DNA from: Kiritimatiellia bacterium
Lineage (GTDB): Bacteria; Verrucomicrobiota; Kiritimatiellia; RFP12; UBA1067
NCBI GenBank assembly: GCA_050949565.1
Contig: JBMNFY010000017.1
Coordinates: 1,472,001-1,536,000, forward strand
DNA length: 64,000 nt
Direction of reading: 5' to 3'
The translations under genes were made by a program, and so were the position numbers. Below the pieces are notes generated by a model, which worked only from the letters and a program-made list of their open reading frames with translations, did no database searches and had not been told where the DNA came from. Positions 14,725 to 53,606 of the stretch are shown here, in pieces; the stretch's first letter is position 1; each line of letters begins with the position of its first letter.

Positions 14725-17700
14725 ATGATCCGTCATTGTGTCCGTAGTTCACGCTTGGCCGCGTTTGTGACCTCTGGTAGCCGTGAGCGCTGTCTCGGCA
14801 GTGGATTCTGTTTGGATTGGAGGTGCCACAGGCTCGTGGACAGACGCCGCCAACTGGTCGGACGGCGTGCCGCAAGCCGCGTCCGACACGGCAACCTTCA
14901 ACACCCCGGCGGTTGTCACGATCCCGGCAAGCATCACGCTGAAAACGATCTTCGCCAATGCCCCGGCCACCGTCACGGTCGCGGCGGGTGCAACGCTCGC
15001 CCTCTCGAACGGCGGCGGCGATATTCTGGTCGCCAGTGCGGACTTCATCCTCGGCGGCGACGGCGACATTACGGTCTCGCGCAACGGCACGTCCACCACC
15101 GATTTTGCGAATATCAAGCCAGCGGCAGGCACCACCCTCACAATCGCCGCCCGCATCACCGGCGTGGAGGGTTCGGGCGTCGAGTTGAACGCGGCGGGTA
15201 CCCTGCTGCTGACGAATCCCGGCAACTCCTTCACAGGGACAACCCGCATCTCGAGGGGCAACGGCACCGTCGTGTTCACCGATCCCGCCGCGCTGGGCGT
15301 GACGGCCGTGCGCTCCGACGGCAGCCCGTCCAAATTCGTCTACACCGGCACCTCGCAAGCCACGCTAACGCTCCCCGTCCAACTCAGCGCCGGCAGCACG
15401 TCGTTCGAAAACGCAGGCGGCGGTCCCTTGACCTTCAGCGGTGCCATCGCCCCCATTTCCTCCGGCACCAAAACGCTGACCTTCAGCGGTACGCAGACCA
15501 ACATCCTCAGCGGCACGCTCTCCAACGGCACCGGTGCCCTGAATGTCGTCGTAGCAGGCGGCGGCACGCTCGTTTTCTCCGGTACGGCCACTGACAACGC
15601 CTTTACCGTCAACGAAGGCGGCACGCTGGCAGTCGGTCCCGGCGCGACCTTCAACACCACCTTGCTCACTTGTCAGGCAGGCAGTACCCTAGCGTTCAAC
15701 CCGGCGGCGGCAGACAATTTTGCCGTCACCCTGCCGCTGACCAACGCGCTCAACGGTGCCGGTGTCCGCTGGTTGATCCCGAACGCCCCCTCTGCTTCGA
15801 CCGTCGCCGTACCGACGCTCGAACGTGTCACAGGTGCCACTCTGGACGTCGTGGCTCCGGCGCTGGGCACCCCTTCCAACCGACTCGTGATCCAGAACCT
15901 GACCCCCGGCCCGCTGCCCGCCTGGTTCACCGTCAACGGCCAGCCCGCCGTTTATGATGCCGCGCTGGGCGTGTTGGCCGCGAGCGCCACCGGCCCGACC
16001 GTTTCCCTGACAGCGCTCGGCCCTTCGGTGATCCCGGACGACGCGACCGCCGCCGCCGTCATCGACGCCGCCGGCACAGCGGGCGGCATCACGCTTGCCG
16101 CTGATCCCACGCACCTCTTCTCGCTCACGCAACAACATGCGGACAATCCTGCGGCCGTCGACCTCGGCGGGCAGACCCTCGCCGCTTCACTTGTTGCCAT
16201 CGACGCGAACGGCAACAACCTGACACTCGCCAACGGTACGCTGACCACGCCCTCCGCCCAGACCCCGCCCAGCGGCGCCGCCGTGCTGCCCACGCTTCCG
16301 GCCGCCCCGCTGGCCTGGTACGACCTCGCCGACGCCGCGACCGTCACCACCGATGCCGACGGTCGTATCACACGGGTGGCCAACAAAGGCTCGCGCGGTA
16401 GCGAGTTGGACGCCGCCGTGCCCGGCGACCGTATCGGACCGCGCTATGTCCCGGGGGCGGTCAACGGACTCGGCGTCGCGCGGGCCGACGGCATCGCGCC
16501 GCCGCAGGGCCTCGCCTCGCTTGGCACCCCCGGCATCTCCGGTAAGGCCCCGCGCACCACCTTTTTGGTCGCAGCGCGCCATCCCACCTCGCGAAACAAC
16601 TTCTACGCCCTCTATCTTGGTTCCGATGCCGGCAACAACCAAGACTTCACCACCTGCGAGCGCTATTACGTCACGTCCTTCTCCACCAAGGACAATGACC
16701 TCGACATCACCACGCCCTCGCCCGCCGGGCATAATGTACTGACCTTTATCTCGGGCCTCAACGACATACCGGACGCCGGCGCGGGCTATCGCAACGGCGT
16801 GCTGCTCGGCACCAAGACCTTCGCCTTTGCCACGGTCGACGCCCCCATCCACCTGCTGCACCGCCCGAACACCGCCGCCAATTTCTCGGGGCCCGGCGAT
16901 GTGGCCGAAGTGCTTGTCTTCGACTACACGCTCTCGGACACCGACCGCGCGGCCGTCGAAGCCTACCTTATGCAGAAATGGCGGATCACTGCGCAACGCG
17001 ATGAGACGTTGCTGGCATTGCGTAACGACAACCCAGACGCTGAACTGACCGTCACGGCCAACGTGGCCGACGCCTACGGCACGCACCTCGCGCTCGCCAA
17101 GTCCGGCCCCGGCAACGTGACGCTTGGTGGTCCGCTCGACTTCACCGGGCCACTCCTGATTCAGGACGGATTTCTCACGTTTGACATACCCGCCGATCGC
17201 TCCGCTGTCGTGAACGCGGCCATCAGCGGTCTCGGAACGCTGTGCAAGACCGGGGCCGGTGGCCTGGCCCTCTCCCTGCCCAGTCCCTTCTCGGGCGGTA
17301 CCCTTATCCAGGGCGGCACCCTCTACCCCGGACACAACGGCTCGCTTGGTAGCGGTCCCGTCTCCATCGCGAACGGCGGCGCGCTGGATATCGCCAACGC
17401 GCCGGCCACCGCCAACCCCGTCACAGGTACCGCGTCCATCGCCAATCCGATCACAGCGGAAGGCACCGGCCCGGACGGCTTGGGCGCCCTGCGCCACAGC
17501 GGCGGCGTCAGCCAGCAGAACGCCTTCAGGAACGTGGCGCTCTCAGGTGACACGGCCGTCTATTCGGCCTCGCGCTTCGATGTGCGCGGCGGCGCCTTCG
17601 ATTTCGGCGGCCACGCGCTGACCGTCAACGGCGGCGGCGAATTCTCCATCGTGCAGTCGGCGGTCTCCAATGTGACCGCCGCTACTTCCGTGCAGATCGC

Positions 17701-20700
17701 CGACGGCATGTTCCGCTTTGAGCAGAGCGACTTCCAAGGCTCGGCGGCCACGGTCGCCGACGCCGCCGCCGGCGCGGGCGTCTGCCTGTATCAGATGACA
17801 GCGCCCCTGCTGTGGTCGCTGAATCTTGCGGACAACGCCTATTTCCGCGTCAACAACGGCAACATGGACACCAATCTGAATGTCTGGGCCGGGCCGGTGA
17901 CGCTCGCCGCAGGCACGTCGCGCCTCAATGCCCTGCCCGGCGGAACCGCCGCCATCACCGGCGCCGTCGGCGGAGACGGCGGCCTGCTCAAGGAGGGCGA
18001 AGGCTGGTTCTGGCTCTTCAACCCGGCCAACACGTACGCCGGCGCCACCACCGTGACACAGGGCAACCTCTACGCCGTCGCGCCCGGTACACTGGGTGCG
18101 CAGGCCGTCGCGGGCCTCACCGTTTCCGACACCGGCGCCTTCATCGCCCGTGTCGCCTCCGGCACCTCCGCCGACGGCTTCAGCCACGCGCAGCTCACGG
18201 CCCTGGCCGATACAACGTTCTCCACGGCACCCGCCTCCACCGCCCTCGGCTTCGACACCTGTTACGAGGATTTCGCCTTCACGAGCGACTTCCCGTTCAT
18301 CGGACTGAAAAAACTCGGGACGCACACGCTCAGCCTCACGGGCAGCGCTCCCGATCTGGGTCCGGTCGATGTGTACAACGGGGAACTCGACCTGACCGCC
18401 ACCGGCAACCACGCGCTGCACACCTATTCGGTCGCCGTCGGCGCAGCACCCGACGCCTCCGCACGCGCCGTCCTGCGACTGGCCGGCACCGCGCTCAACA
18501 CGGATGATCCCGGCTACAGCCGGACCGGTCCGGCGCTGCTCGTCGGCGCGGCATCCGACTCCCGCGCCATTCTGCATGTCGGCGAGGGCGCCGTCGCCAA
18601 CGGACGGCTGCTCGTCGGCAACGGCACCGGCTCCGCCGGCGCCGTCTATCAGACCGCAGGGGTCGTGACCAACACGGGCGGCACCGCCAACGACAGTCGC
18701 ATCGGCGAAAACGGTTTCGGTTATTACCGCCTCGACGGCGGCGAACTGGCCAACAAGGGCTATGTCCAGCTCGGCCGCAACAGCGGGGCCACGGGTATCA
18801 TCGAACAGCGTGGCGGCACGCTGCGTATCAACACCGGTGTCGCCCCCGCCAGCGGCGTCATCGGCGACTACTACAACGGCACCCTCTCCTGCCGCGCCGG
18901 CGTGGGCATCTTCCATCTGGCGGGCGGCGTGTTCGACACAGGCGGCCACTCCCTCCAGCTCGGCGAGTGGGCAGGTGAGAACAACTACTCCAACGGGTTC
19001 GCCGTGCTCACGCTCGAAAACGACGCCCAAGCCGTCGTCAACAGTGAGATCCGCCTCGCCAATCGCAACGGGGCGCCGGAAGCGTACGTCAACCTCAACG
19101 GCGGCGCGCTGACCGCCCGCTACTTCCAAAAGGGCGGCAACAACGCTGCCGGCAATGCGTCGGCCGCCGCGATCGCCTTCAACGGCGGCGTGCTGCGCGT
19201 GGCCGATCAGGGCAATACCGCGTCGTCCTTGGTCCGTACCGGCAGCAACAACAGCCCGGCCATGCTCAACGTCTACGCGGGCGGCGCCGTGATCGAAACG
19301 CCCGGCGCCGGCGGCGGCACCACAGCTCGACCAGCCGCTGCAGCGCGCCGTCCGGCCTCGGCGTCGCATCCGTCACCGTCACCGCGCCCGGTAGCAGGCT
19401 ACATCGCGCCGCCGGCCGTGCTCTTCTCGGGCGGCAACGGCTCCGGCGCCACGGCCATCGCAGAGATCGACACCGCGACCGGTACGCTGACTGCCATCCG
19501 CGTGACCTCGCCCGGCACGGGATATACATCCGCGCCGACCGTCGTCCTGCGTGGCGGAGGCGGCACCGCAGCCGCGGCCTCGGCTGCCGTTGCCACGTCC
19601 GCCAGCGGCGGCCTCACCAAGCTCGGCACCGGCCTGCTCAACCTGGCCGCCGCCAACACCTACACCGGCCCCACCATCGTCTCCAACGGCACCCTGCGCC
19701 TCGCGGCCGGCAACCAAACCCTCTCGCCGGCCAGCGCGCTCACCCTCGCCGGCGGCACGCTGGATCTGGCGGCGCCACGGTCACCAACTTCCAGCCCGTG
19801 GCCATCGAGAGCGGACGCCTCGTCAACGGCAGCCTCTCGGCCCAGTCCTTCACCAAGACCGGCCCAGGCACGGCCACCCTCACGGCCGCGCCGGTGGTTC
19901 CATCGCCCGAAGCCCTTTTCCAAAGTTACGTACGGACCCTCGCTCCCGTGGCGCTGGTACGACCCCTCGGACTCGTCCGCCGTCACCCTCAACGGGGCAG
20001 GGCGCGTCGTTGCGCTCGCCAACAAGGGCACGCGCGGCGCCGCCCTCGACGCCGCCCCCACGGCCGCGCCCAACCTCTCCAACCCGCCTCTCCTCGCCAC
20101 CGGCACGCTCTCCTACGCCGCCTCTGGCCTGCCCATGCTCAAGATCGACGCCAACAATACCGGGCTCGTCTCGACAGAAGCCCTCGGCATCACCGGCGCC
20201 GTCCCCCGTACGGTTGTCACCGTCCTCACCCGCGAGTCCGACACCACCGCCGCCTACACCTGCTTCGGTGCCGCCTCCGCCGGCCAGATGTGGGAAGTCG
20301 GCGACCGCGCCGACAACTCTTCCGTCGTCATTGGCGGCTACTCCGACTTCGACCTGAGCATGTCGCCCCGGCCCACGGCCAAGGTCGCCCACGTCGTCTA
20401 TTCCCAGCTCACGACCGCCAAAAAATCGGAGGCCTGGCGCACCGGCGACGGCCAGAATTACAATTCCCTGACCACCGCCGGGGACTTCAACACCGCCGAC
20501 TCGCGCTTCGTCATCGGCAACCGCATCGACGCCGGCAAGACCACGGCGCGCGGCGAGATCGGCGAAATCCTCATCTTCGACCGCCTTCTCTCTGCTGGCG
20601 AACGCGAGCAGCTCATGGAGATGCTCCGGCAGAAATGGACAACCGCCGAAGGCTTGGCCGAGCCGGAAGACGCCGCCGAGCCCGTCACCGTCGCCGAAGG

Positions 20701-21898
20701 CACACTGCGGCTCGCGCCCGGCGCGGAGGCGATCGCGGCCCTCGCGCCGACCGTCTGGTATGACCCGTCCGATCCCGCCACCGTCACCACCGACGCCGCC
20801 GGACGTGTCACCGCCCTCGCCAACAAAGGCACGCGCGGAACATCCATGGATGCCGGTATCCAGCCCAACTACCAAGGTCCGCTGCTGGTGACCGACGCCG
20901 ACTCCTACTCCGCAGCCGGACGACCGATGCTCAAGATCGACAGCAACACCACCGGCCTCCGTTCCGCCTCCAACACCGGCATCAGCGGCGCGATGCCGCG
21001 CATCTTGATCGCCGTGCTCTCGCGCGATGTCGGAACCGGATCGGACGACCAGCAGGCGGTCGTCGCCTTCGGCAATCAGAGCGCACCCCGCGCGATGTAC
21101 GAGTTGACCGATCGGGCGTTCGGCAACTGTTTCGGTAACAACAGCGACGATCTTTCCATCTCGCCGGTGCTCCCTCCGGCCGCCGCCAACGTCTACATGA
21201 TGGAAGCCACGGCGGCCGACATCATCACCGGCTGGCGCTCGGGAGGCGTTCCCTCCAAGGTCAGCAAAGTGCTGGGCGGCGACTGGGTTACGGTCGACAC
21301 GCCGATCTGCCTCGGCTACCGGCCTCACACTCACCGCACCACGTTCCGCGGCCAGATCGGCGAGGTGCTGCTCTTCGACCGGCTGCTCAGCGAACGGGAG
21401 CGTGCCGACGTCGAGGACTACCTCGTCAACAAATGGACGCGGGCGGATGGCGCGGACGGCCTCTTTGACGGTGCGGTGTTCGATGTCGCCGCCGGTGCCA
21501 CGCTTGACTTGGGTGGTGCGCGTTCCGGTGTCACCGTCACTGGCAGTGGCACGCTGGCGAACGGCACGCTCGGCGCGGGCTTCATCATCAGTCCCGCCGG
21601 TGATGACGCGATCGGCGAGCTTGCGCTGAACGGCGTCACCTTCGGTGCGGGTGCAGAATACCGCCTGACCGTCCTCGACACGGCCAGTGATCGCCTGTTG
21701 GTTGACGGCGACCTCAGCGCCCTGACGGTCGTGCCCGCCACCGCTGCGGAACTCACCGGCACCAGTTACGTCATTGCGACCGGTGCCATCACCGGCAAGC
21801 CCGCGCTCAGCGGCTTCCCGGAGAAGTTCAAGGTGATCCAGCAGGGTAATGACCTGCTGCTCACCAGTATTGGGGGCACGGTTCTGATGCTGCGCTGA
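14725..21898 (+). CDS. Giant (~2390 aa) secreted protein with autotransporter-associated beta-strand (PATR) repeats and three LamG-like domains; contains apparent indels
   Basis: AAGGAG then ATG at 14725; the signal peptide joins the 14783 frame through a 1-nt shift near 14772. Repeats such as GGLTKLGTGLLNLAAANTYTGPTIVSNGTL; three WYD..D...G(E/D)(I/V)(G/A)E.L.FD..LS..(E/D)R...KW domains; ends GGTVLMLR with no beta-barrel. Confidence 0.85.
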
Positions 21899-21906
21899 CC
21901 ATTGAG

Positions 21907-22844: not shown

Positions 22845-23017
22845 TGCCTTATCGACCGATAAGGCCAATAAAAAACAAGTTGTTTGTTTAACGCAGAGGC
22901 GCAGAGACGCAGAGGTTTTTTTGGAGGGAACGCGCTCCCGGACAAACTAATGCACTAAGTAACTAACGCACTAATTAACTTGGGTTGCGGGCTGCGCCCG
23001 CATTAGCAACCCGCCGA

Positions 23018-23046
23018 TTGACAAATCGGCGAGGCTGGCGTAACGT
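23018..23046 (+). promoter_or_regulatory. Putative sigma70 promoter of the RM operon
   Basis: TTGACA-17 nt-TAACGT, then GGGAGG at 23065 and TTG at 23078. Confidence 0.55.
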
Positions 23047-23077
23047 AGCCTTGTGTTGTGAGTCGGGAGGTTTTGTT

Positions 23078-24565
23078 TTGGTCGTCAACACAGACGCGAT
23101 AAGACTGGCGCTTTCTGCGCAGACAAAGGACGGCAAGAAGGCTCAACTTGGGCAGTTCTTGACGCCCTCGTCTGTTGCGTGCTTCATGGCGTCTCTTTTC
23201 TGCGCAGGCTCATTTTCAAAGTGCCGCCTTCTGGATCCGGGCGCAGGCATCGGTACGCTTTCTGCGGCCTTTCTTGACCGATGCATTGCGGGAAAGCTGC
23301 GCTTCCACCAGATTGATGTCGACACCTTCGAGATCGATAACTCGCTGCAACCTCATTTGTATCGCACGCTGGGGGCTTATCGCTCGCACATCAACTGCAG
23401 TGTGAAGGTGTGGGACGCCGACTTTATCGAAGCCGCAGCCTCGTCGCTTGCGGGAGATCTTTTCGCCCATTCATTGCCGAAGTATACACACGCGATACTG
23501 AACCCGCCCTACAAGAAGATTCGGAGCGATTCTGTCCACCGTTCGGCGCTGCGTCGTGTTGGTATTGAGACGGTAAACCTCTATTCCGCTTTTGTCGCCC
23601 TCTCATTAGAGTTGCTGGAAGAGGATGGGCAGTTGGTTGCGATCATTCCCCGTAGTTTCTGCAACGGCCCTTATTACAGACCGTTTCGTGAGTTGATGCT
23701 TAACCGTGCGGCACTCAAGCACCTGCACCTGTTTCACGCCCGAAATAAAGCCTTTCGCGACGACAATGTCCTGCAGGAGAATATCATCATTCAACTGGAA
23801 CGCGGGCGACAGCAGGGGCCCGTCACGGTGTCTGCATCCACGGACAACAGCTTCAGTGATTTTGCCAGTCAGGAATATCCTTTTGACAACATCGTCTTCC
23901 CTGATGACGCCGAGCGTTTTATTCGCGTGCCAATGGTTTCAAATATGGTGCCAGCCGTTCAAGCCTCAACGCTAGTGTCGAGCCTTGCGGATTTGGGTGT
24001 TTCCGTATCAACCGGGCCGGTCGTCGACTTCAGGGTGCGGCAGCACCTGCGTCAAGTCCCCGAGCCCGGTTCGGTTCCGCTTCTCTATCCCGGACATTTT
24101 TCCGGAGAGGGGTTTGAGTGGCCTAAAGACAATTTCCGCAAGTCAAACGCGATCATGCTGAATGCCGAGACCGAGAAATGGCTTTATCCGAAAGGCTTTT
24201 ATACGGTTGTCCGGCGCTTCTCTTCGAAGGAGGAAAAGCGGCGTATCGTCGCGAGCGTGGTTGATCCTTCGGCATTTCCAGATGCCGAGTGGCTGGGTTT
24301 CGAAAATCATCTCAACGTCTTCCATCGTGAACGGCACGGGTTGCCGGAGGACATCGCCTACGGGTTGACCGCCTTCCTCAACACGCGCGCCCTAGACACC
24401 TATTTCCGCAGTTTTAACGGTCACACGCAAGTTAATGCGACCGATCTCAGGCAATTACGCTATCCGAGTTTTCTATTGTTGTCCCGTCTCGGACGTTGGG
24501 TACGCAAGAACCCGCAAGCGGATCCCGATCAGGTTGATGAGAAAGTGATGGCGATTACCGCATGA
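23078..24565 (+). CDS. Type II N6-adenine DNA methyltransferase, BsuBI/PstI-like
   Basis: LGQFLTP, LLDPGAGIG (motif I), ILNPPY (motif IV), NLYSAF, IIPRSFCNGPYY, STGPVVDFR, RRFSSKEEKRR, FENHLN, FNGHTQVNATDL. Visibly lower GC than flanking genes. Confidence 0.92.
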   Translation: MVVNTDAIRLALSAQTKDGKKAQLGQFLTPSSVACFMASLFCAGSFSKCRLLDPGAGIGTLSAAFLDRCIAGKLRFHQIDVDTFEIDNSLQPHLYRTLGAYRSHINCSVKVWDADFIEAAASSLAGDLFAHSLPKYTHAILNPPYKKIRSDSVHRSALRRVGIETVNLYSAFVALSLELLEEDGQLVAIIPRSFCNGPYYRPFRELMLNRAALKHLHLFHARNKAFRDDNVLQENIIIQLERGRQQGPVTVSASTDNSFSDFASQEYPFDNIVFPDDAERFIRVPMVSNMVPAVQASTLVSSLADLGVSVSTGPVVDFRVRQHLRQVPEPGSVPLLYPGHFSGEGFEWPKDNFRKSNAIMLNAETEKWLYPKGFYTVVRRFSSKEEKRRIVASVVDPSAFPDAEWLGFENHLNVFHRERHGLPEDIAYGLTAFLNTRALDTYFRSFNGHTQVNATDLRQLRYPSFLLLSRLGRWVRKNPQADPDQVDEKVMAITA

Positions 24566-25506
24566 CCAAAAACGTCAAACAGGCACTGCAGGTTCTATCA
24601 GAACTTGGCTTTCCCCGCGCCCAACAAAATGAGCGATCGGCGCTTTGTCTCTTGTCTCTTCTCGGAATGACTCGCAACAAAACGTGGGCACAGGCTTCGA
24701 GCCCACTTATGGGGATAACGCCGATCATGGATTGGGTAATGCTCCACTACAAGAAAAAATACGCGCCCAACACGCGGGAGACCATCCGTCGGCAAACCAT
24801 GCATCAGTTTGTTGATGCAGGGCTCGCCATCTACAATCCTGACGATCCCGCTCGCCCTGTGAACAGTCCGCATGCCGTTTATCAGATCGACCAGACGGCT
24901 CTAAACTTGTTGCGTACCTTTGGCTCGCCCGCATGGAAAGCGAACCCGAAAAGTTATCTGGCAGATCGCCCGTCCTTGGCAGAAAAGAACGCACGACGGC
25001 GTACCCTCAAAAAAATTCCGGTCGAAATTGCTCCCGGCCGGAAGATCAAACTGAGTCCGGGGGCTCACAGCGAGCTTATCAAAGCTGTGATTGAGTCCTT
25101 CGCGCCTCGATTCGCCCCTGGATGCACGCTTGCTTATGCGGGGGACACGGGCGAAAAGTGGGGATACTTCGACGAAGAACTATTGGAGAAACTGGGTGTT
25201 TCTCTTGATGCGCATGGCAAAATGCCGGACGTGGTTCTCTTCGATCAAGCAAGGAATTGGCTGTTACTGGTTGAATCGGTGACCAGTCACGGGCCTGTGG
25301 ACGCAAAACGTCATCGCGAGTTGTCGCGCCTGTTTGCGCAATCGACGGCGGGGTTGGTTTACGTGACCGCCTTCCCCGATCGTGCCGTCATGTCGCGTTA
25401 TCTTGCTGAGATCGCATGGGAGTCGGAGGTGTGGGTGGCAGATGCGCCGACTCACCTGATCCACTTCAACGGCACCCGTTTTCTGGGGCCTTACGATCCG
25501 TGTTAG
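24562..25506 (+). CDS. BsuBI/PstI family type II restriction endonuclease
   Basis: QQNERSALCLL, YAPNTRETIRRQTMHQF, LSPGAHSELI, FAPRFAPG, HGKMPDVV, ESVTSHGP, IAWESEVW, HLIHFNG.RFLGPY; ATGA overlap with the methyltransferase stop. Confidence 0.93.
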   Translation: MTKNVKQALQVLSELGFPRAQQNERSALCLLSLLGMTRNKTWAQASSPLMGITPIMDWVMLHYKKKYAPNTRETIRRQTMHQFVDAGLAIYNPDDPARPVNSPHAVYQIDQTALNLLRTFGSPAWKANPKSYLADRPSLAEKNARRRTLKKIPVEIAPGRKIKLSPGAHSELIKAVIESFAPRFAPGCTLAYAGDTGEKWGYFDEELLEKLGVSLDAHGKMPDVVLFDQARNWLLLVESVTSHGPVDAKRHRELSRLFAQSTAGLVYVTAFPDRAVMSRYLAEIAWESEVWVADAPTHLIHFNGTRFLGPYDPC

Positions 25507-25683
25507 CCTAACGCGGGCGGCGCCCGCAACCCTCGCCCCAGCCCTTTCCCAGCGGGAGGGGGTGAAAACAACTTGTTTTTTATTGACTTTATCGGCTGGT
25601 AAGGCACTAAGGAGAGTGGTACATGTTCAGATCCGTACGGTTCTTTTTCCTGTACGCCGTAAGCTGCCTACCGGTATTGGTGT

Positions 25684-31064: not shown

Positions 31065-34000
31065 CTACTGCAATATCAGCCTGGTTCCGTCGGCATTGAC
31101 CTCCAAAAGCGCGGGGAGGCTGACAACATACCGGGAGCCGCTACCGTAGACCAGTACGGTGTAACTACCCGTGTGGCGACCGCGCACATTGGGGATCTCC
31201 AGCGTCGAGGCGGTCGCTCCGGGGATGATGACGCCGTCCTTGCACCACTGATAGCGGGTGGCGTCGCGGGCCAATACGGCGAAGAACGCCGACGCCTTGA
31301 CATCGACCCGCTGGTCGGTCGGCGAGAGGATGATTGTCGGCAGGGTACCCCAGCCGGGATCCGGTACCGGCTCCATCGGCGCTACGGCGGAGGGCCGGAC
31401 GAAAACATAGAGCGTGCGCGAGGAGTACTCGTTGTAGGCACCTGACCCCGTCCAATCCGGCGCACCGGTCGGCCGGTTGCCGATGCCCAGTTCGATGGCA
31501 CGGTTGTCATTGCCCCAACTGTTCACCGCAAAGAGCGTCTGGCCGAGCCTGTAGTTGTGAACCTGGAATGAACCGCGCCCGAACGCACCGTTGAGGGTGG
31601 CGGCATTGTCGACCGAGTAGTAGAGCGTGTTGGAAGCGTCGACATCGAAGCGCGCGCGCACCGGGATATCGATTGTGTAGAGGTGTTTGAACGCAGCCGC
31701 ATCGGGCACGTTGGCGAGCACCTCGGCGGGGATAGCCGGTGCCTGCGGTTCGGGCTTGATGAAGACCAGCAGGCGGCGCGAATCCCAGTTGGCACCGGAG
31801 TTTGAGTGTGTCCAGTCGGGGGAGCCAGACGGGTTGTTGCCGATGCCGACGCAAACGCTGTCATTGCCGCCGCAATTGCCGAAACGGCTGAGCGCCCAGC
31901 AGGTCTGCCCGGCGCCGTAATTGTGGACTTGCATCGAACCGTACCCGCCGCCGCGCGAAGCGCCGCGGCGGTCGCCGAAATCGAAGGTGCTGTCGGATGC
32001 GCCGGGGATGGCTGCGGCGTTGGTCTGCTGATAGTCCCAGTCCCAGAACTCGATGTTGCCGGTGTCGCAGCCGTTGGTGTTGACCACCCCATTTACGTTG
32101 GAGAACACGTCGAGATTAGAGACGGTCTGCTGGAAGAAGTCGTCGTTGGCCGGGACTCCGAGCCGGTTGACGCCGACGCAAATGGGGTCGAAAGCTGTCC
32201 AGCAGAAGCTGGTGACGTTGTTTTTGACCAGTTCCAGGAAGTAAGCGACGCGCGTATGGGGCGTGTTCGCAAAACGGGTGGCGTTGTCCACCGAGTAGTA
32301 GGTGGGACGCACGGCGGCGTCGGCGAACTTCGGCTGGCGCGGGATGTCGACGGTGTAGAGGTGCCGGTAATCGGTCACATCCGGCACCTGCTCAAGCACG
32401 TGCGCAATCACCTCGGCAGGCGGATCGAGCGTTTCTGCCGGGACGGGCACTTCCGGACGCGCGAGCACGTAGAGGCGGCGGGAGGCGTAGGCGGCCGCAT
32501 TTTCGGCGAAGGTCCAGTCTTTGTCTGAGCTGTTGAGCGTCTCGGTGGAGGCGGGCGTACCGATGCCGAGACTCACCGAAGACGTACGATTGTCGCCCCA
32601 CCGGTTGATGCCGAAGACGGTCTGGGCGTTCAGATAGTTGTGGACTTGGAACGAGCCGTGTCCGGCACTGCCGCTGAAGCCGCCGTCACCGAAATCGTAA
32701 GTCGAACCGCTGGCGCCCGGTATGCCACGGTCGTTTCCGGTGCCATAGTTGGAGGGCCAAAACTCAATGTTGCCGGTGTCGAACTCGCCGTTTATGACGC
32801 CGGATTTATTGGACCTCACAGTCAGGTTGGTCACGATCTGGGCGAAGATCGCTTTAGTGGCGGTGTTCGGGATACCGATCTTGGAGAGGAAGGGCGTGAA
32901 GGCATCCATGGAGGTCCAGGCGTATTGGCGCGCCGGGGAGGCGAACGGACGTTGGCCGAGCGCCAGATAGTAGGCCACACGGCTGAAGGGCACGCCCGAA
33001 GCCGCAGCGTTGAAGAGGTACGGATCAGGAATGCCCCGCCCGAAATCGCTGCAAACGGGAATGTCCAGCGTGTAGACCACGCGGTAGCCGGCGGCGAACG
33101 TGCCCGCATCCGCCGCGATCTCGGCGGGCAGCAGGTCCACTGCAACAGAGGCGGGAGCCGTGGGAATACCGCCTTGGATATCGCGCAGGCCGGCGGCGGT
33201 GAGCGTGAGCGCGGTACCGGACGGTTGCGGCGTGGTGGTGAGCGTGACGGTCATGAGATCCTTGCCGAGCGTGGCATCGGTAACCGACACGCCGTTATCA
33301 AGCTGAAGGCCGAGGCCGTGACGGATTCGGCGCGCAGTGCGGACGAAAAGGTCACCGCGATGTGTACGCCGTCATACCCGGTATAGGCGGAGAGCGGCAC
33401 GGGCGGATCGCGCGGCACGGGCGCGGCGGCGCGCTTGATAAAGACTTGCAGCACGCGGGTGGCGTATTGCCCGGCGTTGTCGGTAAAGGTCCAGTCGAGC
33501 TGTCCGCCACTGGAGGTGGTCGAGGGGTTCGGGTTGTTGCCAATTCCGAGGCATGTCGTGTAGTAGGCGGTCGAAGCACTTCCCCAGTGATTAAGGGCAA
33601 AAATCGTCTCGCCCTCGGCGGTGTTGTGGAGCTGCATCGAACCATACTCGCCATCCGAGGGGGTGTCGCCAAAGTCAAAGATACTGTCGCTGGCGCCGGG
33701 CACGGAGGCACCGTTCCCAGTCGTGTAGTTGCACGGCCAGAACTCGATGTTGCCGACCGGGAACTGGCCGGATGTGACGGCCGGCGAAATGCTGTGGACC
33801 GTCAGATTGGAAACGGTCTGCTGGAAGAAGGCGCCTGAGAGCGTGGTCGGCACGCCGAGCTTGGCAGCGTCCTGCGTGAAGGCGTCGACCTCGGCCCACA
33901 CGTAAAGAAGCTGCTCACCGGTACGCTGCAGTGCCATGTAGTACGCAACGCGGCTGAGCGGCGCATGGGCGTATGTGGCGGAGGCGTCCAGGCTGTACCC

Positions 34001-35152
34001 TACCTGTTCGCGGCCGTAACGGGCACCGGTCGGGATGTCGAGCGTGTAGAGCGGATCCCAGCCCTCCAGCAGATCCGCCGGGACATTGTCAGCGGCGTAC
34101 GCGGAGATCGGCGGCGTCAAGAAAGCGCGCGTTTCCGTGCGCGTCGCCGAGAACGGTCCGCCCTCGGCGGCGGGCACCAGATCCGTGAGCGCACCGTTGA
34201 ACGTGAGCGAGTATAGGGTGTTTGGCGAGACACCAGAGACAGTCAGCGTGACCTGGCGCAGGTCGTCCGACAACGCAGAAACAGCGGTCACCGTGCCCGC
34301 AGGCGCGAGGGTGTAGGAGGCTGGATTGGTGACGGCCGACGAAGCGGCGAGATCAAGCGGCTTGGAGAAAACGGCGGTCAGGCTGGCTGGAGAAACCGCT
34401 CTGGCGGAGGAGAAGCCGGGCGGCAGGCGGTCGCCGTAGTGCCCGACAATGTTCGTCACGACCGGGAACCACGCGGCAGCCATCTTGGCGTAGCCGTCCG
34501 CACTGGGGTGCAGGTTGTCGTACATATCGGAGCGCTCAAGGTGGGCATGCATGTCGAGGAAGTGCACGCGCCGCCCTGCTGCCTGATGAGCCTGAACCCG
34601 GCCTAAGACATAAGGATTAAAGTAGTTGGTGATCGCGATATACTTCGGCTCAGTGTCATCTGTCCCACGCTTCATAAGGGTAGTCGCTACGATGTGGGCA
34701 TAGGGCCGCGCCTCGGCGATGCGCAGGATCAGCGCGTCCAGCTCGTCGATCGCGTGTTCGAAATCCGGATCGTTGGTGTCGTTGGTGCCGACATGCAGCA
34801 GCACCACGTCGGGGTCATCAATCTGGGCAAGCCAGGAAAGGATGTTCTCGTACAGGCCTTGACTGGCCGCAGAGATACGCCAGCCGCTATGCCCTTGGTG
34901 ATTGATCTCATCGCCGAGCCCGGGCGCCGAATTGCCCGTCGCCGTGCCCACCAGATCAATGTTGAAGCCCTGATTCGTCAACGCGACGTAGAGCGGCAAC
35001 CGGTAACCGCCGGGCGTTGAAACACCGTAAGTGATTGAGTCGCCGAGCGGCATCACCCGCAAGGGGGGCGGCGTTTGGCCGCCGACGTTCAACCCCAGGA
35101 ACGCACACGCCGCACACGCCGCAAAAAACAGGACGCAACTTCTATCACGCAT
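31065..35152 (-). CDS. Large secreted SGNH/GDSL esterase with Ig-like domains and four copies of an uncharacterised GNIEFW/GSMQVHN domain; split by one frameshift near 33300
   Basis: RVMPLGDSIT, HQGHSGW, LHVGTND and DNLHP SGNH blocks. ORFs 33251-35206 and 31065-33290 join as AFS|LDNGVSV if one base is added. Ends in an Ig domain (YQWCKDG..IPGAT) and ADGTRLILQ. Confidence 0.82.
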
Positions 35153-35364
35153 GACCGACTCCTCTATGCTCGACGCCTCTACAGCCGCAATGTCTACGAC
35201 ATTCACAACGATTCGAATGTATCAAAACGAACACCTTCGGCGCAACAGCAATCGGTCGGCGGCGGCAAGGATCTGTCGGATCAGCCAGATCGGTCTGATC
35301 TGACGCCTTTCCTAAAATGGGGATTGTCGAAGCGGTGCGAGCTACCGTATACTGACCCCTGTTT

Positions 35365-42917: not shown

Positions 42918-42950
42918 TCCGTCCAATCCGTCTGATTTGTCTGATCTTTC

Positions 42951-43708: not shown

Positions 43709-45360
43709 GAGGCTCTTGCAAAACCCCCACACCGCAACGCCTGACGGCCTGCGGGCGGGACGTCTTGTCAGCGAACCATCCCACCGCCCGGCGCGGCCGG
43801 GCATGACGCTCCGCCCCACGCCGCGTCGCCTTCTGCACGGCACCATACCGCGCCCAAAACGAACAGGGGTATTGTCGCACATTCCGGGGTGTTTGTCTAC
43901 CCCCCCCCGATTTTTGTTGTATCTTGTTGCCGCGCAATATGTTACAATGCCTCCATCATCCGTAAGGACGGAAAAACAAACGCGGAAAGGAGACAAAAAC
44001 GCATGAAGGAAACGCGACATCAACCCCCTCTGGGCCAGTTGTGGAACAGCATCCAGTCATGGCTCTTCCCGATGCTGGAGGACGAGATCGGGGAACTCGA
44101 CGAGAAGCACCGCCAGTTCGTCGCGGTCTGCGAGCTGTGCGCCCCGCAGGATCACATGGGCGCCTACCGCTGGTGCGGCAACGGCTGCCCGCCGTGCGAC
44201 CGGCTGGCGATGTGCAAGGCGTTCATAGGCAAGACCGTCTGGAACTTCGACACCACGAGCGGCCTGATCGACGCCATCCGCCACCGTCCGGCCCTGCGCC
44301 GGCTGTGCGGCTGGGAGACGCTCGGCGAAGTGCCCTCGGCGTCGACCTTCTCGCGCGCCTTCGCCGAATTCGCCAAAAACGGGTGCCCGCAGGAAATCCA
44401 CGAGGCGATGGTCAAGGCCCGCTATGGCGACAAGCTCGCCGGGCACGTCAGCCGCGACGCCACCGCGATCCGCGCCCGCGAGAAGGCCGCGGCCAAGCCG
44501 GAGACGGCCCCCGCCCCCGAGCGCGGCAAACGCGGCCGGCGCAGGAAGGGCGAGCCCCCGGCGCCGCCGCCGGATCCGACACGGCTGCAACTGCAGCTCA
44601 ACCGCGGCTTGAAGGAAAACCTGGCCGACCTGCCCGCGTCCTGCGACTGGGGCTGCAAGAAGAACAGCAAGGGCAAGACAGAATGCTGGCGCGGCTACAA
44701 GGCCCATCTGGACGTGATCGACGGCGATATCCCGGTCAGCTTCATACTCACTTCCGCCAGCCTGCACGACAGCCAGGCCGCCATCCCGCTGGCGCAGATG
44801 ACCGCCGGACGGATCGTCAACCTCTATGATCTGGCCGACGCCGCCTACGACGCCAAGGAGATCCGCGAGATGTCGGCGCGGCTGGGGCACGTGGCGCTCA
44901 TCGACCACAACCCGCGCCGGGGCGAGAAGATCGAGTTCTCCCCGGCGGAAGCCCGGCGCTACCACGAACGCACGGCCGTCGAGCGCGTCAACAGCCATCT
45001 GCACGAAGAGCACGGCGGACGGAACGTCCGGGTGCGCGGCCCGGCGAAGGTGGCGGCGCATCTGGCCTTCGGGCTGCTGGTCATCGCCGCCGAGCAGATG
45101 CTCAGAATGCTTCCCTGACCGGCCCCGCGGCAGACTGCCCTCCCTGAAAACCCGCCCGCGACCGGGCGGAGGCGCCGGGGTCTGCCCGGAAACATCCGAA
45201 AAACGGGAAAAACGCCCTGTCGCGTCCGTTTTTCAGCAACCGCTGCGCCTCTTCGTCAGAAAATCCTGCAAAATCCCTTGCGTGCAGGCGTGGCACGGGC
45301 ATCCTGCCCGTGTTTCATGGGCGGGACGCCCATGTCACGAGGGGGTTTTGCAAGAGCCTC
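43709..45360 (+). mobile_element. Insertion sequence (IS1182/IS5-like) with perfect 20-bp terminal inverted repeats
   Basis: GAGGCTCTTGCAAAACCCCC (43709-43728) / GGGGGTTTTGCAAGAGCCTC (45341-45360) around a DDE transposase; no direct target duplication visible. Confidence 0.88.
44003..45118 (+). CDS. DDE transposase (IS5/IS1182-like)
   Basis: LRRLCGW...PS.STFSRAF, SRDATAI, GYKAHLD, LTSASLHDSQ, ADAAYD, Y.ERTAVERVN; AGGAG before ATG 44003. Confidence 0.92.
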   Translation: MKETRHQPPLGQLWNSIQSWLFPMLEDEIGELDEKHRQFVAVCELCAPQDHMGAYRWCGNGCPPCDRLAMCKAFIGKTVWNFDTTSGLIDAIRHRPALRRLCGWETLGEVPSASTFSRAFAEFAKNGCPQEIHEAMVKARYGDKLAGHVSRDATAIRAREKAAAKPETAPAPERGKRGRRRKGEPPAPPPDPTRLQLQLNRGLKENLADLPASCDWGCKKNSKGKTECWRGYKAHLDVIDGDIPVSFILTSASLHDSQAAIPLAQMTAGRIVNLYDLADAAYDAKEIREMSARLGHVALIDHNPRRGEKIEFSPAEARRYHERTAVERVNSHLHEEHGGRNVRVRGPAKVAAHLAFGLLVIAAEQMLRMLP

Positions 45361-47802: not shown

Positions 47803-48091
47803 TCTTTTCCGTGCTGCGCACGGAGAAGACATTTAGGATTTGAGATTTAGGAGTTAGGAGTTTTCCGCTTGGGAGTTGAGCGTTCTTGGCGGCGTAACCG
47901 CCGCCGGGCAAGCAGACGCTTGCCCCTCCCGGCGCTCCGCAAGCCTGATGAATGGATCTGCGACGGCAAACGATATTCCGCGCGACGCCGCTTTTCCTCC
48001 GCGCACAGCGCGGAGGGTCTTCCCCGGCACAGCCGGTAGTGCGGGTGCTGCTCCGCACACGCACTACCTCTCACCCATTACCTCTTACTTA

Positions 48092-49003: not shown

Positions 49004-49075
49004 GATTCTTTCCTTCTCTTTTTCAGGATGCCAAGCCAGCCCGTTTCGTCAGGCGACTTAGCATCGTTGTGAACA

Positions 49076-49510: not shown

Positions 49511-49718
49511 CCGAGCCCCCCCTCTATGGGTTCACATCACCACGGGGCCAATTAAATCAGGTCACCCCGCCATTTGGCAAGGACGGATTACGGGATTTAG
49601 AATTTGGGAGTTGGGATTTAGGAGTTTTTGGAGCCGCCAGCACTACCGGCACTGCCGGTGCTGCGGGCGATGGCGGCGTAAACGCCGCCCGCAGAACTTG
49701 AGCGCCGCACGGAAAATG

Positions 49719-52700
49719 TCACCGCAAAAAGAGCAGCGAACCGGCACCGTAGACGCGACACCAGAAGGCACCGGATGCAATCTCGAACTTCACATCGCGC
49801 GTGCCCGATACATTTTCCACACTCCAGCGCTCGGCCAAATCGCCCAGGCCAACATCTGTCACGGAGGTGCCGCGCGCGATTTCCCAATTGCCCGTGGCCT
49901 CTGGGGCGGATAGCGTGATCGTGCCGCCGCCCGCAAGCGTGACGGTGCCGTTCGCTGTGATCAACGGTCCCTTGTTCGCCGCCGTCAGCGTGATTTCCGT
50001 GCCGTCGGGAATCTCCACGTCGCCGGGATAGGCGACCTGCGCCGCGCCGTCGATTGCCGTGGCGCGGAAGGTGGCGTTCACGCGCGTGACGCCTTCCGGC
50101 AGCGCGAGCGCACCACCCGCCATTTCGAAGTAACCCGTGAACCCGGTAGGATTCGCGCCGAGCGTGAGTTCCGCGTCTTCCGGCAGCTTCAGCGTGCCGT
50201 TGCCTGTGAGCGTGCCCGCGAACGTGTTTGTGCCTGCGAGCGCCAGCCGCCCGCTCACGAGGCTGAGTGTACCTTCACCGGAGAGTTGACCGACCTCCTC
50301 ATCGGAGCCATTTACCTCAAGCGTCGCACCCTGCGCCACCGTCACCGCGCCGCCCGGCGGCAGTACATGCACACCGCGCGCGTCCGCCCGCATCGTCGCG
50401 CGGATCTGCTGCACGCTTAGCGCCTGATCGAACACCTTCACCTCGTCGAGTGCGCCGCGGAAGAGCGCCCAAGTCGCCGTGGTTTTTGCGCCGAGATAGA
50501 AGCGGGCCGTGTCTCGTAGAGAGTCATTCATGAACGCACCATCCGACGAGAAGCCGTCCACGTACTGCCCGTCCACGAAGTTCCGTACGCCCGTTTCGGG
50601 ATGGTACGTTGTGGCGAAATGGTGCCAGCGCTGAGGCGCGTCGCAGTCGTGGAGGCCGGGGAGCGTGCTGCCGGAGTTGATATCGAACAGGCTGCCGTTC
50701 GGCTTGCGTATGCAGCATCGCATACTCCAAGTTCTGTCGTTCTGATCGTACCAGTAGCTGAGCATGTAGTTGATCGTTTTGTCCACGGGACAGCCCCAAC
50801 TGATGAAAGTGGGGTAGTGCACGTTATTGCCCTGTTTGGTGAACTCGTCCGCCTGATGGGTCTGTATCCAGAGCGACACCGTAAACGGCTGGCCGTTTGA
50901 CGGGATCGCCTCCGGGAAGCTTTCGCTGCACAGATAGGAGAGATTGTAAGCATCGAACTTGAGCGCCTTACCGCCGAGAGGCGAGTCGATGAGCGTGAGC
51001 GTGCCGTTGCCACATTCGACAAGGTCGTTCGTGCCGACGGAGTCCTTGCCGATGTTGGACGCATCCTCGAACGCATAGTGCAGCACGGGCGCGGGGGCCT
51101 CCGCGCTCGCGTCCGGCACCGCGCCGCGCGCGAGTGCCACCAGGTCTCTGCGCGCATAGAGACGCGCTACGTCCGCAGCGTCAAGCGCCTCGGTGTAGAT
51201 ACGCACATCGTCGATGAGCCCTTTGAATGGGCGGCCCGAAGAGTTGCTGAACTGCCGCCCGATGCACACCTTCTTTGAGAGCGGAATCGCAAGCGCCTGC
51301 GCGACGTCTGTCCACCACGTCTGCACGCCATCGCAATAGACGGTGAACAAGCTCCCTTTGCGCACGGCCACATAATGGTGCCACGCGCCCTGCGGATTGG
51401 GAGGCGAAGTGACATTGGCGAAGTCGAGCGTGTCGCCCCAGTGGGAGAGGCAGAGTGTACCGGCGGAAATGCCGTTGTAGCGGAAGACGATCTGCCGGAA
51501 AGCGTTGTTGTCGCCCAACGAAATGAACGTGCCCGGATCGCCGCAGTCCGCGTCGGGCTTCACCCATACGCTGATCGTGTAGTCCGCATCGCCTGTGAGG
51601 TACGGCGATTTCACCTCCGTCTCAAGCCTCTGCGCCGAAGTGCCGGGGAACCGTGCCACCCAGCCGCCGCGCTCGGCGTCGTATTCGCGCGAGACACCGT
51701 TCTGCGTGGTGAGGGTGTATCCGTTGCATGTGGCATCGACACCCAGGTTGTCATCTTCAAAGTCGTAGACGGCGAATGGTTGCGGCAACACCGCCATGTT
51801 CTGGAGAACGAGCGTGCCTTCGCGCACCTCGGTACCGCCCGTGTGCGTGAGCGCACCGCCGAGCGTGAGTACGTTCGGGCCGGTCTTTGCGAACACGCTC
51901 TCACCGCGCACGCCCGCATTGTAGGTGCCCGGGCCGGTCATCGCGAGTTCGCTGCCCGCATTCATCACGATGCCGCCGCGCACGGCATTACCGTCCACAC
52001 GGACGAGGGTCTGCGTACCGGCGAGTTGGATTTCGCCGTTGAGTTCGGTATACAACCGTGTGTTCGCGGGGATCGCCACCGGCTCACCTGCCGTGCCAAC
52101 GAGATCGCCGTCCGAAATGGGCTCTTTGCCGGCGAGGAGTTGCTCAATGCCCGTGGGGCCGAGCGCACGCGAATAGATGCGCACGTCATCGATATCGCCG
52201 CAGAAGAAACGTGACCATTCCGGCAGACGACCGATGAAAATCTGAACGGTCTCTGGCAGCGTCATTTCAAGGACAATACTCCGTTCGTCGAGTACCTTCA
52301 CGCCGTCCATCCACACGGTGAGGCGGCACCCTTCGCGCATCGCCATATAGTGATGCCACTGCGTGGGGTCCGAAGGGCCGGGGAGATTACTTTTGTCGCC
52401 TGCCTGGTTCCAGTGGCCGAGCAGGAGCGTGTTGCAGGTGTTATTCACGAAGCGGAACTGCACGATGCTATGATCGACGCACTGCGAACCGATCGCGACC
52501 ATCGTGGGATAGCCGTTCGCGACAGGTGTGTCGAAAGTCCGCGCCCACAGGCTGATCGTGTAGTCCGAGTCGCCCGTGAGTTCGGTGGTGTCCGTGACGG
52601 TGGCCACAAGCTCACCGCCGGAGTTCGCCGTGCCCGTGAAACGCGCCACATATCCGCCGCGTCCGGCGTCGTACACGCGCTCGACCGTACCGTTCGCCAC

Positions 52701-53606
52701 GAGATCGCGTCCATGTCCTGAAGAGTCGTGCGTGAGAGACTCCTCGAAGTCATACTTTGCGAACGGTACTGCGGCGGGCGTTTTTGAGTCGAGGCGCAAC
52801 CGTCCGGCGCGTGCGCCGTAGGCGATGTTCTCGGCGATGTTCGTCACATACAGGTTTTTCACCACGGCCGCCACGCGCCCTGTACCGGAAACAGCATCAG
52901 AGAGGATGTCTGAGCGCGTGGCACCGAGCCGAAGCTCGTTGCCCTCAAGTGGGATCGCCGTGCCCGTTTCGCTTTGGAGCGAGCCCAGAGCCACCTGCGA
53001 GGTATAGTTCGAGAGCGTAAGCGTGCCCGCGCCCGTCACACGCACATCGGTAAAGGCGAGCGCGTCATCCATCATCGGGATCACCTGGCCTTCTGCGATT
53101 TCAAGCGTGCGGCGCGGTTTGCCGGCGGGACAGAAAGACGAGATGCGCACGGTACCGTCTCCTTCCTTGCGCACACTGCCATAGTCATCGGGCCAGAACC
53201 GACAGTCGCTGCCGATCACGAGCGTACCGCCCCTGACGCACAGAGGGAAATAGCCAAGCGCCGCTGTGCTAGCAGTAAAACCGCTGCCGCCGTTAGACCA
53301 CCTCAGCCACCACAGATAACTCTCGGGCACCTCTTCTTCTGGCCCAGGCACGGCGGGCTCAACCACCATGCCACCCATATAAGCTGTTTCTCTAACAGTG
53401 ATGGTCTGCCGGTCGGCGAGTTGGAAAAAGGTCACATTGGTGTGCGCGGGCAACACGCCTCCTACCCAGTTTGTGTACTCGCCCGCAGCGTTCGTCGCGG
53501 CCCACTGTCCACCCATGGAGCCGTTCCAAAGGTTCGTAGTAACGTCCGCATTCACGCCCATCACCGCATACGTGAGCGCGAGAATCAATAGGGTCGTTCT
53601 TTTCAT
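49719..53606 (-). CDS. Large secreted protein with three LamG/concanavalin-like domains and PATR-like linkers
   Basis: Signal peptide MKRTT...VNA; three Y.FE(D/E)...(Y/F)T(I/V)S.W...WHH...DG...G.(I/L)D(D/E)V.(I/V)(Y/F)..AL domains; KTGPNVLTLGGALTHTGGTEVREGTL; ends GAGSLLFLR. Confidence 0.85.
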   Translation of the reverse strand: MKRTTLLILALTYAVMGVNADVTTNLWNGSMGGQWAATNAAGEYTNWVGGVLPAHTNVTFFQLADRQTITVRETAYMGGMVVEPAVPGPEEEVPESYLWWLRWSNGGSGFTASTAALGYFPLCVRGGTLVIGSDCRFWPDDYGSVRKEGDGTVRISSFCPAGKPRRTLEIAEGQVIPMMDDALAFTDVRVTGAGTLTLSNYTSQVALGSLQSETGTAIPLEGNELRLGATRSDILSDAVSGTGRVAAVVKNLYVTNIAENIAYGARAGRLRLDSKTPAAVPFAKYDFEESLTHDSSGHGRDLVANGTVERVYDAGRGGYVARFTGTANSGGELVATVTDTTELTGDSDYTISLWARTFDTPVANGYPTMVAIGSQCVDHSIVQFRFVNNTCNTLLLGHWNQAGDKSNLPGPSDPTQWHHYMAMREGCRLTVWMDGVKVLDERSIVLEMTLPETVQIFIGRLPEWSRFFCGDIDDVRIYSRALGPTGIEQLLAGKEPISDGDLVGTAGEPVAIPANTRLYTELNGEIQLAGTQTLVRVDGNAVRGGIVMNAGSELAMTGPGTYNAGVRGESVFAKTGPNVLTLGGALTHTGGTEVREGTLVLQNMAVLPQPFAVYDFEDDNLGVDATCNGYTLTTQNGVSREYDAERGGWVARFPGTSAQRLETEVKSPYLTGDADYTISVWVKPDADCGDPGTFISLGDNNAFRQIVFRYNGISAGTLCLSHWGDTLDFANVTSPPNPQGAWHHYVAVRKGSLFTVYCDGVQTWWTDVAQALAIPLSKKVCIGRQFSNSSGRPFKGLIDDVRIYTEALDAADVARLYARRDLVALARGAVPDASAEAPAPVLHYAFEDASNIGKDSVGTNDLVECGNGTLTLIDSPLGGKALKFDAYNLSYLCSESFPEAIPSNGQPFTVSLWIQTHQADEFTKQGNNVHYPTFISWGCPVDKTINYMLSYWYDQNDRTWSMRCCIRKPNGSLFDINSGSTLPGLHDCDAPQRWHHFATTYHPETGVRNFVDGQYVDGFSSDGAFMNDSLRDTARFYLGAKTTATWALFRGALDEVKVFDQALSVQQIRATMRADARGVHVLPPGGAVTVAQGATLEVNGSDEEVGQLSGEGTLSLVSGRLALAGTNTFAGTLTGNGTLKLPEDAELTLGANPTGFTGYFEMAGGALALPEGVTRVNATFRATAIDGAAQVAYPGDVEIPDGTEITLTAANKGPLITANGTVTLAGGGTITLSAPEATGNWEIARGTSVTDVGLGDLAERWSVENVSGTRDVKFEIASGAFWCRVYGAGSLLFLR

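Follow-up and report, generated by a model that had tools for sequence, protein, structure and literature searches.

Seven terminal residues shared by secreted proteins of Kiritimatiellia: a conserved C-terminal tail that is probably an undescribed signal for sorting to the cell surface

The window analysed here is a stretch of 64,000 nucleotides from a Kiritimatiellia bacterium (assembly GCA_050949565.1, contig JBMNFY010000017.1, positions 1,472,001 to 1,536,000 of the forward strand), and it carries three genes for secreted proteins that end in the same kind of short C-terminal tail. The tail has the general form G-[TS]-h-h-h-h-[R/K, sometimes Q]-COOH, where h is a hydrophobic residue. It is a real and conserved module, typical of the lineage and strictly terminal, that is shared by secreted proteins with unrelated architectures, and it is probably an undescribed signal that sorts these proteins to the cell surface. 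The three genes and their tails are the following.

14725..21898, forward strand: gene 1, which encodes a giant secreted protein containing PATR repeats as well as LamG-like domains; long open reading frame (ORF) 14783..21898, 2371 residues
21875..21895, forward strand: tail GTVLMLR of gene 1, then the TGA stop at 21896..21898
31065..35206, reverse strand: gene 2, a secreted protein split into the ORFs 33251..35206 and 31065..33290; likely start ATG at 35152
31068..31088, reverse strand: tail GTRLILQ of gene 2, then the TAG stop at 31065..31067
49719..53606, reverse strand: gene 3, with three LamG_3 domains and PATR repeats, in the ORF 49719..53642; likely start ATG at 53606, MKRTTLLILALTYAVMGVNA
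49722..49742, reverse strand: tail GSLLFLR of gene 3, then the TGA stop at 49719..49721

A preliminary description of this DNA had quoted the three C-termini as TSIGGTVLMLR, VNADGTRLILQ and VYGAGSLLFLR, and re-translation gives exactly these ends, each directly before the stop, for the long ORF of gene 1, the reverse-strand ORF 31065..33290 of gene 2 and the ORF of gene 3, respectively. The same description had written the last position as R or Q; both occur, but R or K is far commoner there than Q, and the four residues that precede it are generally hydrophobic. It had also spoken of three signal-peptide proteins, which is true without reservation of gene 3, an intact gene whose near-identical database protein P0005 begins MKRTTLL, whereas genes 1 and 2 are interrupted by frameshifts in the window. 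In gene 1, the signal peptide begins at the ATG at 14725, but this start and the peptide's first 16 codons are out of frame with the long ORF, the frameshift lying near 14772. The near-identical database protein P0034 reads straight through the signal-peptide region (it starts MIRHCVRSSCLAAFVTLVAVSAVSAVDSVW), and by tblastn its residues 17-2389 fall on window positions 14774..21895 in a single frame; comparison with P0034 further marks two internal out-of-frame stretches in gene 1, at about 19307-19409 and about 19751-19979. The frameshift of gene 2 lies at about 33300-33308, since tblastn with P0154 and P0123 changes frame from -1 to -3 at 33299-33308, and its signal peptide, MRDRSCVLFFAACAACAFLGLNVGG, is encoded by the upstream ORF 33251..35206. 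The frameshifts in genes 1 and 2 may be either assembly indels in G+C-rich sequence or marks of decaying genes.

The order of parts in gene 2 is an SGNH/GDSL esterase, Big_5, a repeated domain without a Pfam match, an immunoglobulin (Ig) domain and the tail. The repeated domain is about 230 residues long, stands in several tandem copies behind the esterase, has a match in neither Pfam nor NCBIfam, and shows the recurring features RVAYYLEL, GNIEFWP-NY, GSMQVHN and GIGN; it is also found in relatives of up to 2900 residues.

The strict pattern G[ST]x[LIVMF]x[LIVMF][RQK]$ is found in 3 of the 552 stop-to-stop frames of at least 60 residues in the window, and these three are genes 1, 2 and 3 alone; a looser pattern adds a single match, in a 67-residue frame at 3200. 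About 0.01 terminal hits are expected in the 34 gene-sized, Pfam-scanned ORFs of the window (Poisson P = 1.5e-7 for at least three), an expectation derived from the internal frequency of the 7-mer, 58 in 204,022 positions, in a larger ORF set. This set consists of 417 simple, non-overlapping ORFs from the window and from 36 loci around gene 1 relatives in species-representative genomes, 677,650 bases altogether. Within it, the strict 7-mer ends 24 of the 417 ORFs, against 0.12 expected from the internal frequency. Seventeen of these carriers are gene 1-like, and the 24 together represent at least seven families as judged by BLAST clustering and Pfam (Poisson P for at least seven = 6e-11). Because the set was built around one family, the family count is a fairer measure than the raw 24. 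By both the window and the larger set, the motif exceeds chance. The carriers outside the gene 1 family are the following.

Window genes 2 and 3, as given above
L007:1977-4571: an 864-residue PATR protein
L013:17460-18611: a 383-residue protein without a Pfam match
L013:21701-23425: a 574-residue protein with an HpiC1-like carbohydrate-binding domain, the tail following ...LLIDDVRVF-SSKVHQ-
L031 and L035: two members of a further giant-protein family

What precedes the tail differs between carriers: in some it is a beta-helix of autotransporter-like type, in others an Ig domain or the last part of a putative carbohydrate-binding domain, and the 383-residue protein has no Pfam match at all. In the putative carbohydrate-binding carrier, whose HpiC1-like Pfam match lies further upstream, the tail is found at the domain end (...LLIDDVRVFSSKVHQGTILLVQ); a homologue search with this protein returned one near-identical database protein only. 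Further giant proteins end in variants of the tail, among them AGMVIMVK, EGMYIIVR and SGTILLLH. The loci nearest to the window are contigs of metagenome-assembled genomes, at 85-86% identity for those labelled "Verrucomicrobia bacterium ADurb.Bin070" and at 79% for "Kiritimatiellia bacterium". Every named carrier belongs to a Kiritimatiellia-type genome of this kind, so that the tail does appear to be lineage-specific, as had been supposed.

Conservation among relatives concerns the terminal residues themselves. For gene 3, 28 relatives were compared (28 of 29 matches, the 29th, P0033, being counted apart), down to 50% identity in the queried region. Glycine is present at position -7 in 27 of the 28 and Thr or Ser at -6 likewise in 27, and the last residue is R in 26 and Q in two. 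Among the 77 relatives of gene 1, which extend down to about 35% identity, the strict pattern is present in 59; G is found at -7 in 76/77 and T or S at -6 in 68/77, and the chain ends in K in 34 and in R in 30, or in any of R, K and Q in 67. Those relatives of gene 1 that depart from the strict pattern mostly carry near variants such as GGALLLLK and GGSIIRFY. Gene 2 was represented by its last 230 residues, searched against representatives; the 150 matches listed are dominated by multi-Ig giants and include about ten true relatives. Ten relatives among the matches listed extend to or near the C-terminus, and five of these have a strict tail, four a near variant and one none. The tail of gene 2 comes after a complete Ig domain (Pfam Ig_3 at 651-713), and the strict tails of its relatives, FPPGTKLILR, DFKGTILLLK, LPLGTLIKVR, ISQGTHVWFK and IPRGTVLRLR, also follow an Ig domain.

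Among the tail-bearing relatives listed, zero residues lie beyond the tail, and the end point is residue-exact across relatives at 35-50% identity. One relative of gene 2, P0228, has no tail, and its sequence goes on beyond the matched region. The idea put forward in the preliminary description, of a terminal motif shared by different architectures, is therefore upheld in that the tail is kept at the extreme C-terminus in three unrelated families. Stop read-through or a hidden extension was considered and rejected, since all three stop codons, TGA, TAA and TAG, are in use after tails and the in-frame continuation gives no coherent sequence.

The tail is also associated with secretion. Of the 24 carriers, seven are cut by the end of their contig; 13 of the remaining 17 are flagged by a crude hydrophobic-region test, versus 129 of 361 non-carriers (Fisher P = 0.001). 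The four unflagged carriers each continue an upstream ORF or frame that bears a signal peptide: they are window genes 1 and 2, the ORF at L018:11058, which comes after L018:8153-10942, and the ORF at L019:1383, which comes after L019:260-1498. Wherever the N-terminus of a carrier is readable, a signal peptide is present. Not every secreted protein of the window has the tail, since the HZS_alpha-like protein, the beta-helix protein and the lactonase fusion lack it, as had been stated.

Whether the tail is simply the last strand of a folded domain was approached with AlphaFold2 models of the last 170 residues of gene 1 (18 alignment rows) and the last 141 residues of gene 2 (10 rows). The gene 1 model contains a confident domain, with a predicted local distance difference test score (pLDDT) above 90 for approximately residues 31-160; its last ten residues have a mean pLDDT of 60, the last four fall below 50, and no strand is assigned to them. 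In the gene 2 model, the Ig domain (approximately residues 50-132) likewise exceeds 90, and the last two ten-residue blocks drop to 69 and 52 and also lack an assigned strand. The chains end 9-10 residues past the last folded domain, nine past the passenger-like domain in the case of gene 1. In both of these models of C-terminal fragments, the tail is predicted to be excluded from the fold. AlphaFold2 thus does not treat it as the closing strand of the preceding domain, an outcome that the preliminary description would have counted against its proposal. The nearest Foldseek matches of the gene 1 domain are autotransporter passenger beta-helices, and they are weak: the best is Ssp (8e7f; E = 7e-3, TMq 0.59), followed by pertactin, Ag43 and the IcsA autochaperone region, and none is found at E up to 1e-3. 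A two-copy complex prediction for the gene 1 C-terminal domain gave a score of 0.00.

Judged from sequence comparison, the tail occupies the slot in which other phyla have known outer-membrane anchoring or sorting devices, and it is mainly because this slot holds an autotransporter barrel or a PEP-CTERM elsewhere that the tail is read as a signal. P0033, the relative of the gene 3 C-terminal region that was counted apart, has an autotransporter barrel (PF03797) and ends ...VRFSW; a Planctomycetia relative of gene 1, the PATR protein L028:9503-14425 (+), ends in a PEP-CTERM, ...VPEPGTLALLSVAGIVAAAAAWRRRRS. Genes 1 and 3 resemble classical (type Va) autotransporters in their PATR repeats (PF12951/TIGR02601), which gene 2 lacks, and the modelled domain of gene 1 is passenger-like at the weak level given above; unlike these autotransporters, the three proteins lack both a linker helix and a 12-stranded barrel translocator (no PF03797 in Pfam). 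The beta-signal of bacterial outer-membrane proteins (BAM substrates) has a G-x-x-h-x-h pattern with a terminal aromatic residue and is part of a barrel. The tail is similar to it in being a short terminal strand with Gly followed by hydrophobic positions, and differs from it in ending in R, K or Q (28/28 of the gene 3 and 67/77 of the gene 1 relatives) and in having no barrel domain.

The tail also shares with PEP-CTERM, GlyGly-CTERM, MYXO-CTERM and LPXTG signals that it is short and terminal and is found many times per genome on unrelated secreted proteins, and with PEP-CTERM-type signals the order of motif, hydrophobic stretch and basic end. However, it has no PEP, GG or Cys signature beyond G-[TS], the residues before the window tails being SIG, NAD and GA instead of the PEP of TIGR02595, and it has a single basic residue and no Arg cluster. 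With four to five hydrophobic residues it forms no membrane helix, which agrees with the preliminary description, where the motif was called too short for one. That description had also found neither a PEP-CTERM nor an autotransporter barrel on the three proteins; this stands, since neither Pfam nor NCBIfam at E up to 1 gives such a match for them, or a match to any known sorting model. Among the carriers there is no C-terminal transmembrane-like tail, and the exoproteins of the Kiritimatiellia loci show no PEP-CTERM and no C-terminal membrane anchor; a PEP-CTERM regular expression run over the 417 ORFs gave a credible match in L028 only, the match in L010 (a 113-residue ORF) being unconvincing. 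In a preprint by Haft (10.1101/2023.06.07.544157), the known small sorting signals consist of a motif, a membrane helix and an Arg cluster, and the tail lies outside this definition of tripartite signals.

A different likeness is to the type B signal used in type IX secretion (T9SS; TIGR04131/PF13585). Three TIGR04131-positive, Ig-rich giants among the gene 2 query matches end in GTVTILR, GTVTIMR and GTVLLVR (3/3 in the sample), and their TIGR04131 domain runs up to, or almost up to, the final residue; P0157 and P0224 served as TIGR04131 positive controls, with 58 and 62 bits. The window tails fit this type B end, a terminal strand G-x-V-x-h-h-R at a free C-terminus, where the consensus is drawn from three examples and recall. 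According to PMC12618676, the type B domain has five conserved motifs in its last 100 residues, all required for secretion, and needs outer-membrane shuttles of the PorP/SprF kind, whose genes are usually adjacent; PMC10202324 describes type B domains as probably uncleaved, held by PorP/SprF barrels, and restricted to Bacteroidota. Both kinds of protein thus share a G-T-V-x-h-h-R type of end and the character of Sec-exported giant surface proteins, but the type B signal folds as a domain with a length of about 85-100 residues or more, of which the window proteins share the last seven, and the C-terminal folds in the window are an autotransporter-like beta-helix and an Ig domain, in another phylum. 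The window proteins match neither TIGR04131 nor TIGR04183 (NCBIfam, E up to 1) and neither PF13585 nor PF18962 (Pfam). Since there is no hidden Markov model hit, the folds are others and no PorP/SprF gene is among the 91 neighbours scanned with Pfam, the window proteins are not members of T9SS type B. No described sorting family is matched by model, and the terminal strand common to the tail and to type B may be either convergence or a hint of a common way of being read. Full-text searches of the literature on secretion and surface of Kiritimatiellota and on PEP-CTERM and exosortase in Verrucomicrobia and Lentisphaerae returned no description of the tail, subscription journals and supplements being outside their scope.

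In addition, a different C-terminal feature is seen in the multi-Ig giants found with gene 2. Among these 150 proteins (P0111-P0260, from many sources), 48 have an [FY][FY][RKQ] triplet in the last 12 residues, typically as ...RFYRVxxxP, and a protein of a Kiritimatiellia locus, L012:23248-27063 (-), ends ...NAPQRFYRVIWE. This end looks like a second recurrent terminal motif.

The reading that we favour, with a probability of roughly one half, is that the tail is a sorting or anchoring signal, which an envelope factor recognises in the form of a free terminal strand; we infer the function, the strand addition and the partner alike. The tail would be an autonomous seven-residue C-terminal signal on exoproteins of Kiritimatiellia that leave the cytoplasm through Sec, are for the most part very large, and resemble adhesins or act on glycans. 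After export of the carrier by Sec, an envelope factor, whose gene would lie in another part of the genome, would bind the tail by beta-strand addition; the tail is free, unstructured and hydrophobic at this stage and ends in a basic residue and a carboxylate. The factor would most likely be a beta-barrel of the outer membrane or a shuttle protein. This binding would then direct the carrier across the outer membrane or hold it there. A bolder version is possible, though we regard it as doubtful: a previously unknown sorting system in which a tail without membrane helix or folded domain would suffice, docking as an added strand in a dedicated outer-membrane protein, and which would have taken the place of PEP-CTERM as well as of the autotransporter barrel in Kiritimatiellia. 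The T9SS type B domain would in that case hold, in its last strand, the minimal element that such barrels recognise.

Several points weigh against the reading of the tail as a sorting or anchoring signal. No partner gene recurs beside the carriers in BLAST clustering of the 417 ORFs, where ordinary synteny only is seen (a GFO/IDH/MocA oxidoreductase, DnaG and, in three loci, HZS_alpha-like propeller proteins). Carriers have 135 neighbours at a distance of up to 6 kb, and Pfam was run on 91 of these, a selection without locus L026 and without the shortest ones; it assigned them to glycoside hydrolases, sulfatases, oxidoreductases and housekeeping genes, and 0/91 had an Omp85, PorP/SprF, T9SS, exosortase or C-terminal peptidase match. 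The machinery for PEP-CTERM-type substrates, however, is usually not adjacent to them, so this null result weighs little either way. Some tail variants have N, H, Y, L, W, E or M as their last residue, which makes the terminal basic residue preferred and not obligatory. The signal-peptide test is crude, as it flags 36% of non-carriers, and the ORF set, gathered around the gene 1 family and no whole proteome, makes the raw count of 24 worth less. Finally, both models rest on shallow alignments (18 and 10 rows) and represent fragments, so that a docking site upstream in the same protein would escape notice.

A purely structural role might be considered instead, with the tail acting as a short capping strand on the protein's own beta-sheet and the terminal basic residue as a "gatekeeper" against edge-strand aggregation, without any sorting. 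The carriers are beta-rich, no machinery was found among the neighbours, and the tail always comes after a beta-strand and a Gly-containing turn, so that a hairpin may form; the cap could also pack on a domain outside the modelled fragments. However, AlphaFold2 leaves the tail unpaired with the preceding strand in both models, although the adjacent domain scores above 90, the same 7-mer follows unrelated folds with an end point that is residue-exact at 35-50% identity, and the tail sits where other phyla have sorting devices. We consider such a cap unlikely. The exposure that the models predict for this hydrophobic, strictly terminal segment would also suit a tag for periplasmic quality control or processing, in which a PDZ-bearing protease (of the Prc/Ctp or DegP type) or a carboxypeptidase would control the turnover of giant exoproteins. 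PDZ domains recognise free C-termini, but their ligands normally end in a hydrophobic residue and not in R or K, as the tail does. Furthermore, no such protease was found beside the carriers among the 91 neighbours scanned with Pfam, and a degradation tag on the costliest proteins, in at least seven families, is hard to rationalise, which makes this explanation quite improbable.

Two further explanations would link the tail to systems that are already known. The PEP-CTERM of L028, which reads ...VPEP-GT-LALL...RRRRS, has G-T-L-A-L-L straight after PEP, the same start as the Kiritimatiellia tail. Because G-T and hydrophobic residues follow PEP there, and because the order of motif, hydrophobic stretch and basic end is common to both, the tail might descend from PEP-CTERM or GlyGly-CTERM in miniature, having shed PEP together with the greater part of its membrane helix; it would then be handled by an exosortase-, rhombosortase- or CAAX-protease-like enzyme, or be a fading relic. 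The Haft preprint (10.1101/2023.06.07.544157) lets one intramembrane protease superfamily serve both long tripartite signals and the four-residue CAAX, yet the same text takes a membrane-spanning segment as defining for tripartite signals, and four to five hydrophobic residues cannot span the membrane. As the tail also has no PEP, no Cys and no model hit at E up to 1, and as such strict conservation in at least seven families would be unexpected of a relic, this descent appears improbable. The tail might alternatively be a reduced type B sorting signal of a T9SS-like or PorP/SprF-like system in Kiritimatiellia. The GTVTILR, GTVTIMR and GTVLLVR ends of the three TIGR04131 proteins and the reportedly uncleaved, PorP/SprF-held state of type B domains (PMC10202324) speak for it. 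It is nevertheless highly improbable, given that TIGR04131 and TIGR04183 have no match at E up to 1, that the C-terminal folds are a beta-helix and an Ig domain, that PMC10202324 restricts type B domains to Bacteroidota, and that the one paper found to contain both "type IX secretion" and "Kiritimatiell" concerns another subject by its title.

Some features of the surrounding DNA may be added. The HZS_alpha-like proteins, which are large, carry a signal peptide and combine a "hydrazine synthase alpha middle domain" with beta-propeller repeats, are found near giant PATR genes in three loci of two genomes and have no tail: window 25684-28587 (-), L012:2103-4910 and L012:4907-8113, and L024:228-3389. 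Between gene 1 and the HZS_alpha-like gene of the window, at 22985-25506 (+), an Eco57I-type methylase gene is followed by a gene for a BsuBI/PstI-family restriction endonuclease, and a DDE transposase gene (DDE_Tnp_1 and DUF772) at 43889-45118 (+) adjoins a TMEM43-like gene and a Band 7/SPFH gene. The G+C content of the window is about 61%; it is lowest (0.578) in the block 24001-28000 and peaks at 0.688 in 16001-20000, inside gene 1, a high value that fits the Gly/Ala/Thr-rich repeats of this gene.

In guts, digesters and sediments, Kiritimatiellia are abundant anaerobes that break down complex and sulfated glycans, and we know of no described route by which their giant exoproteins reach the cell surface. 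If the tail is indeed a signal for this, it would be among the shortest known bacterial sorting signals, without a membrane-spanning part, and the surface proteome of an entire class, most of it uncultured, could be predicted by a simple rule. Occurrence profiling across genomes could then reveal the machinery, and the tail could become a compact tag for surface display. The parallel with T9SS type B hints at a common principle, in which a free terminal strand would be read by an outer-membrane protein.

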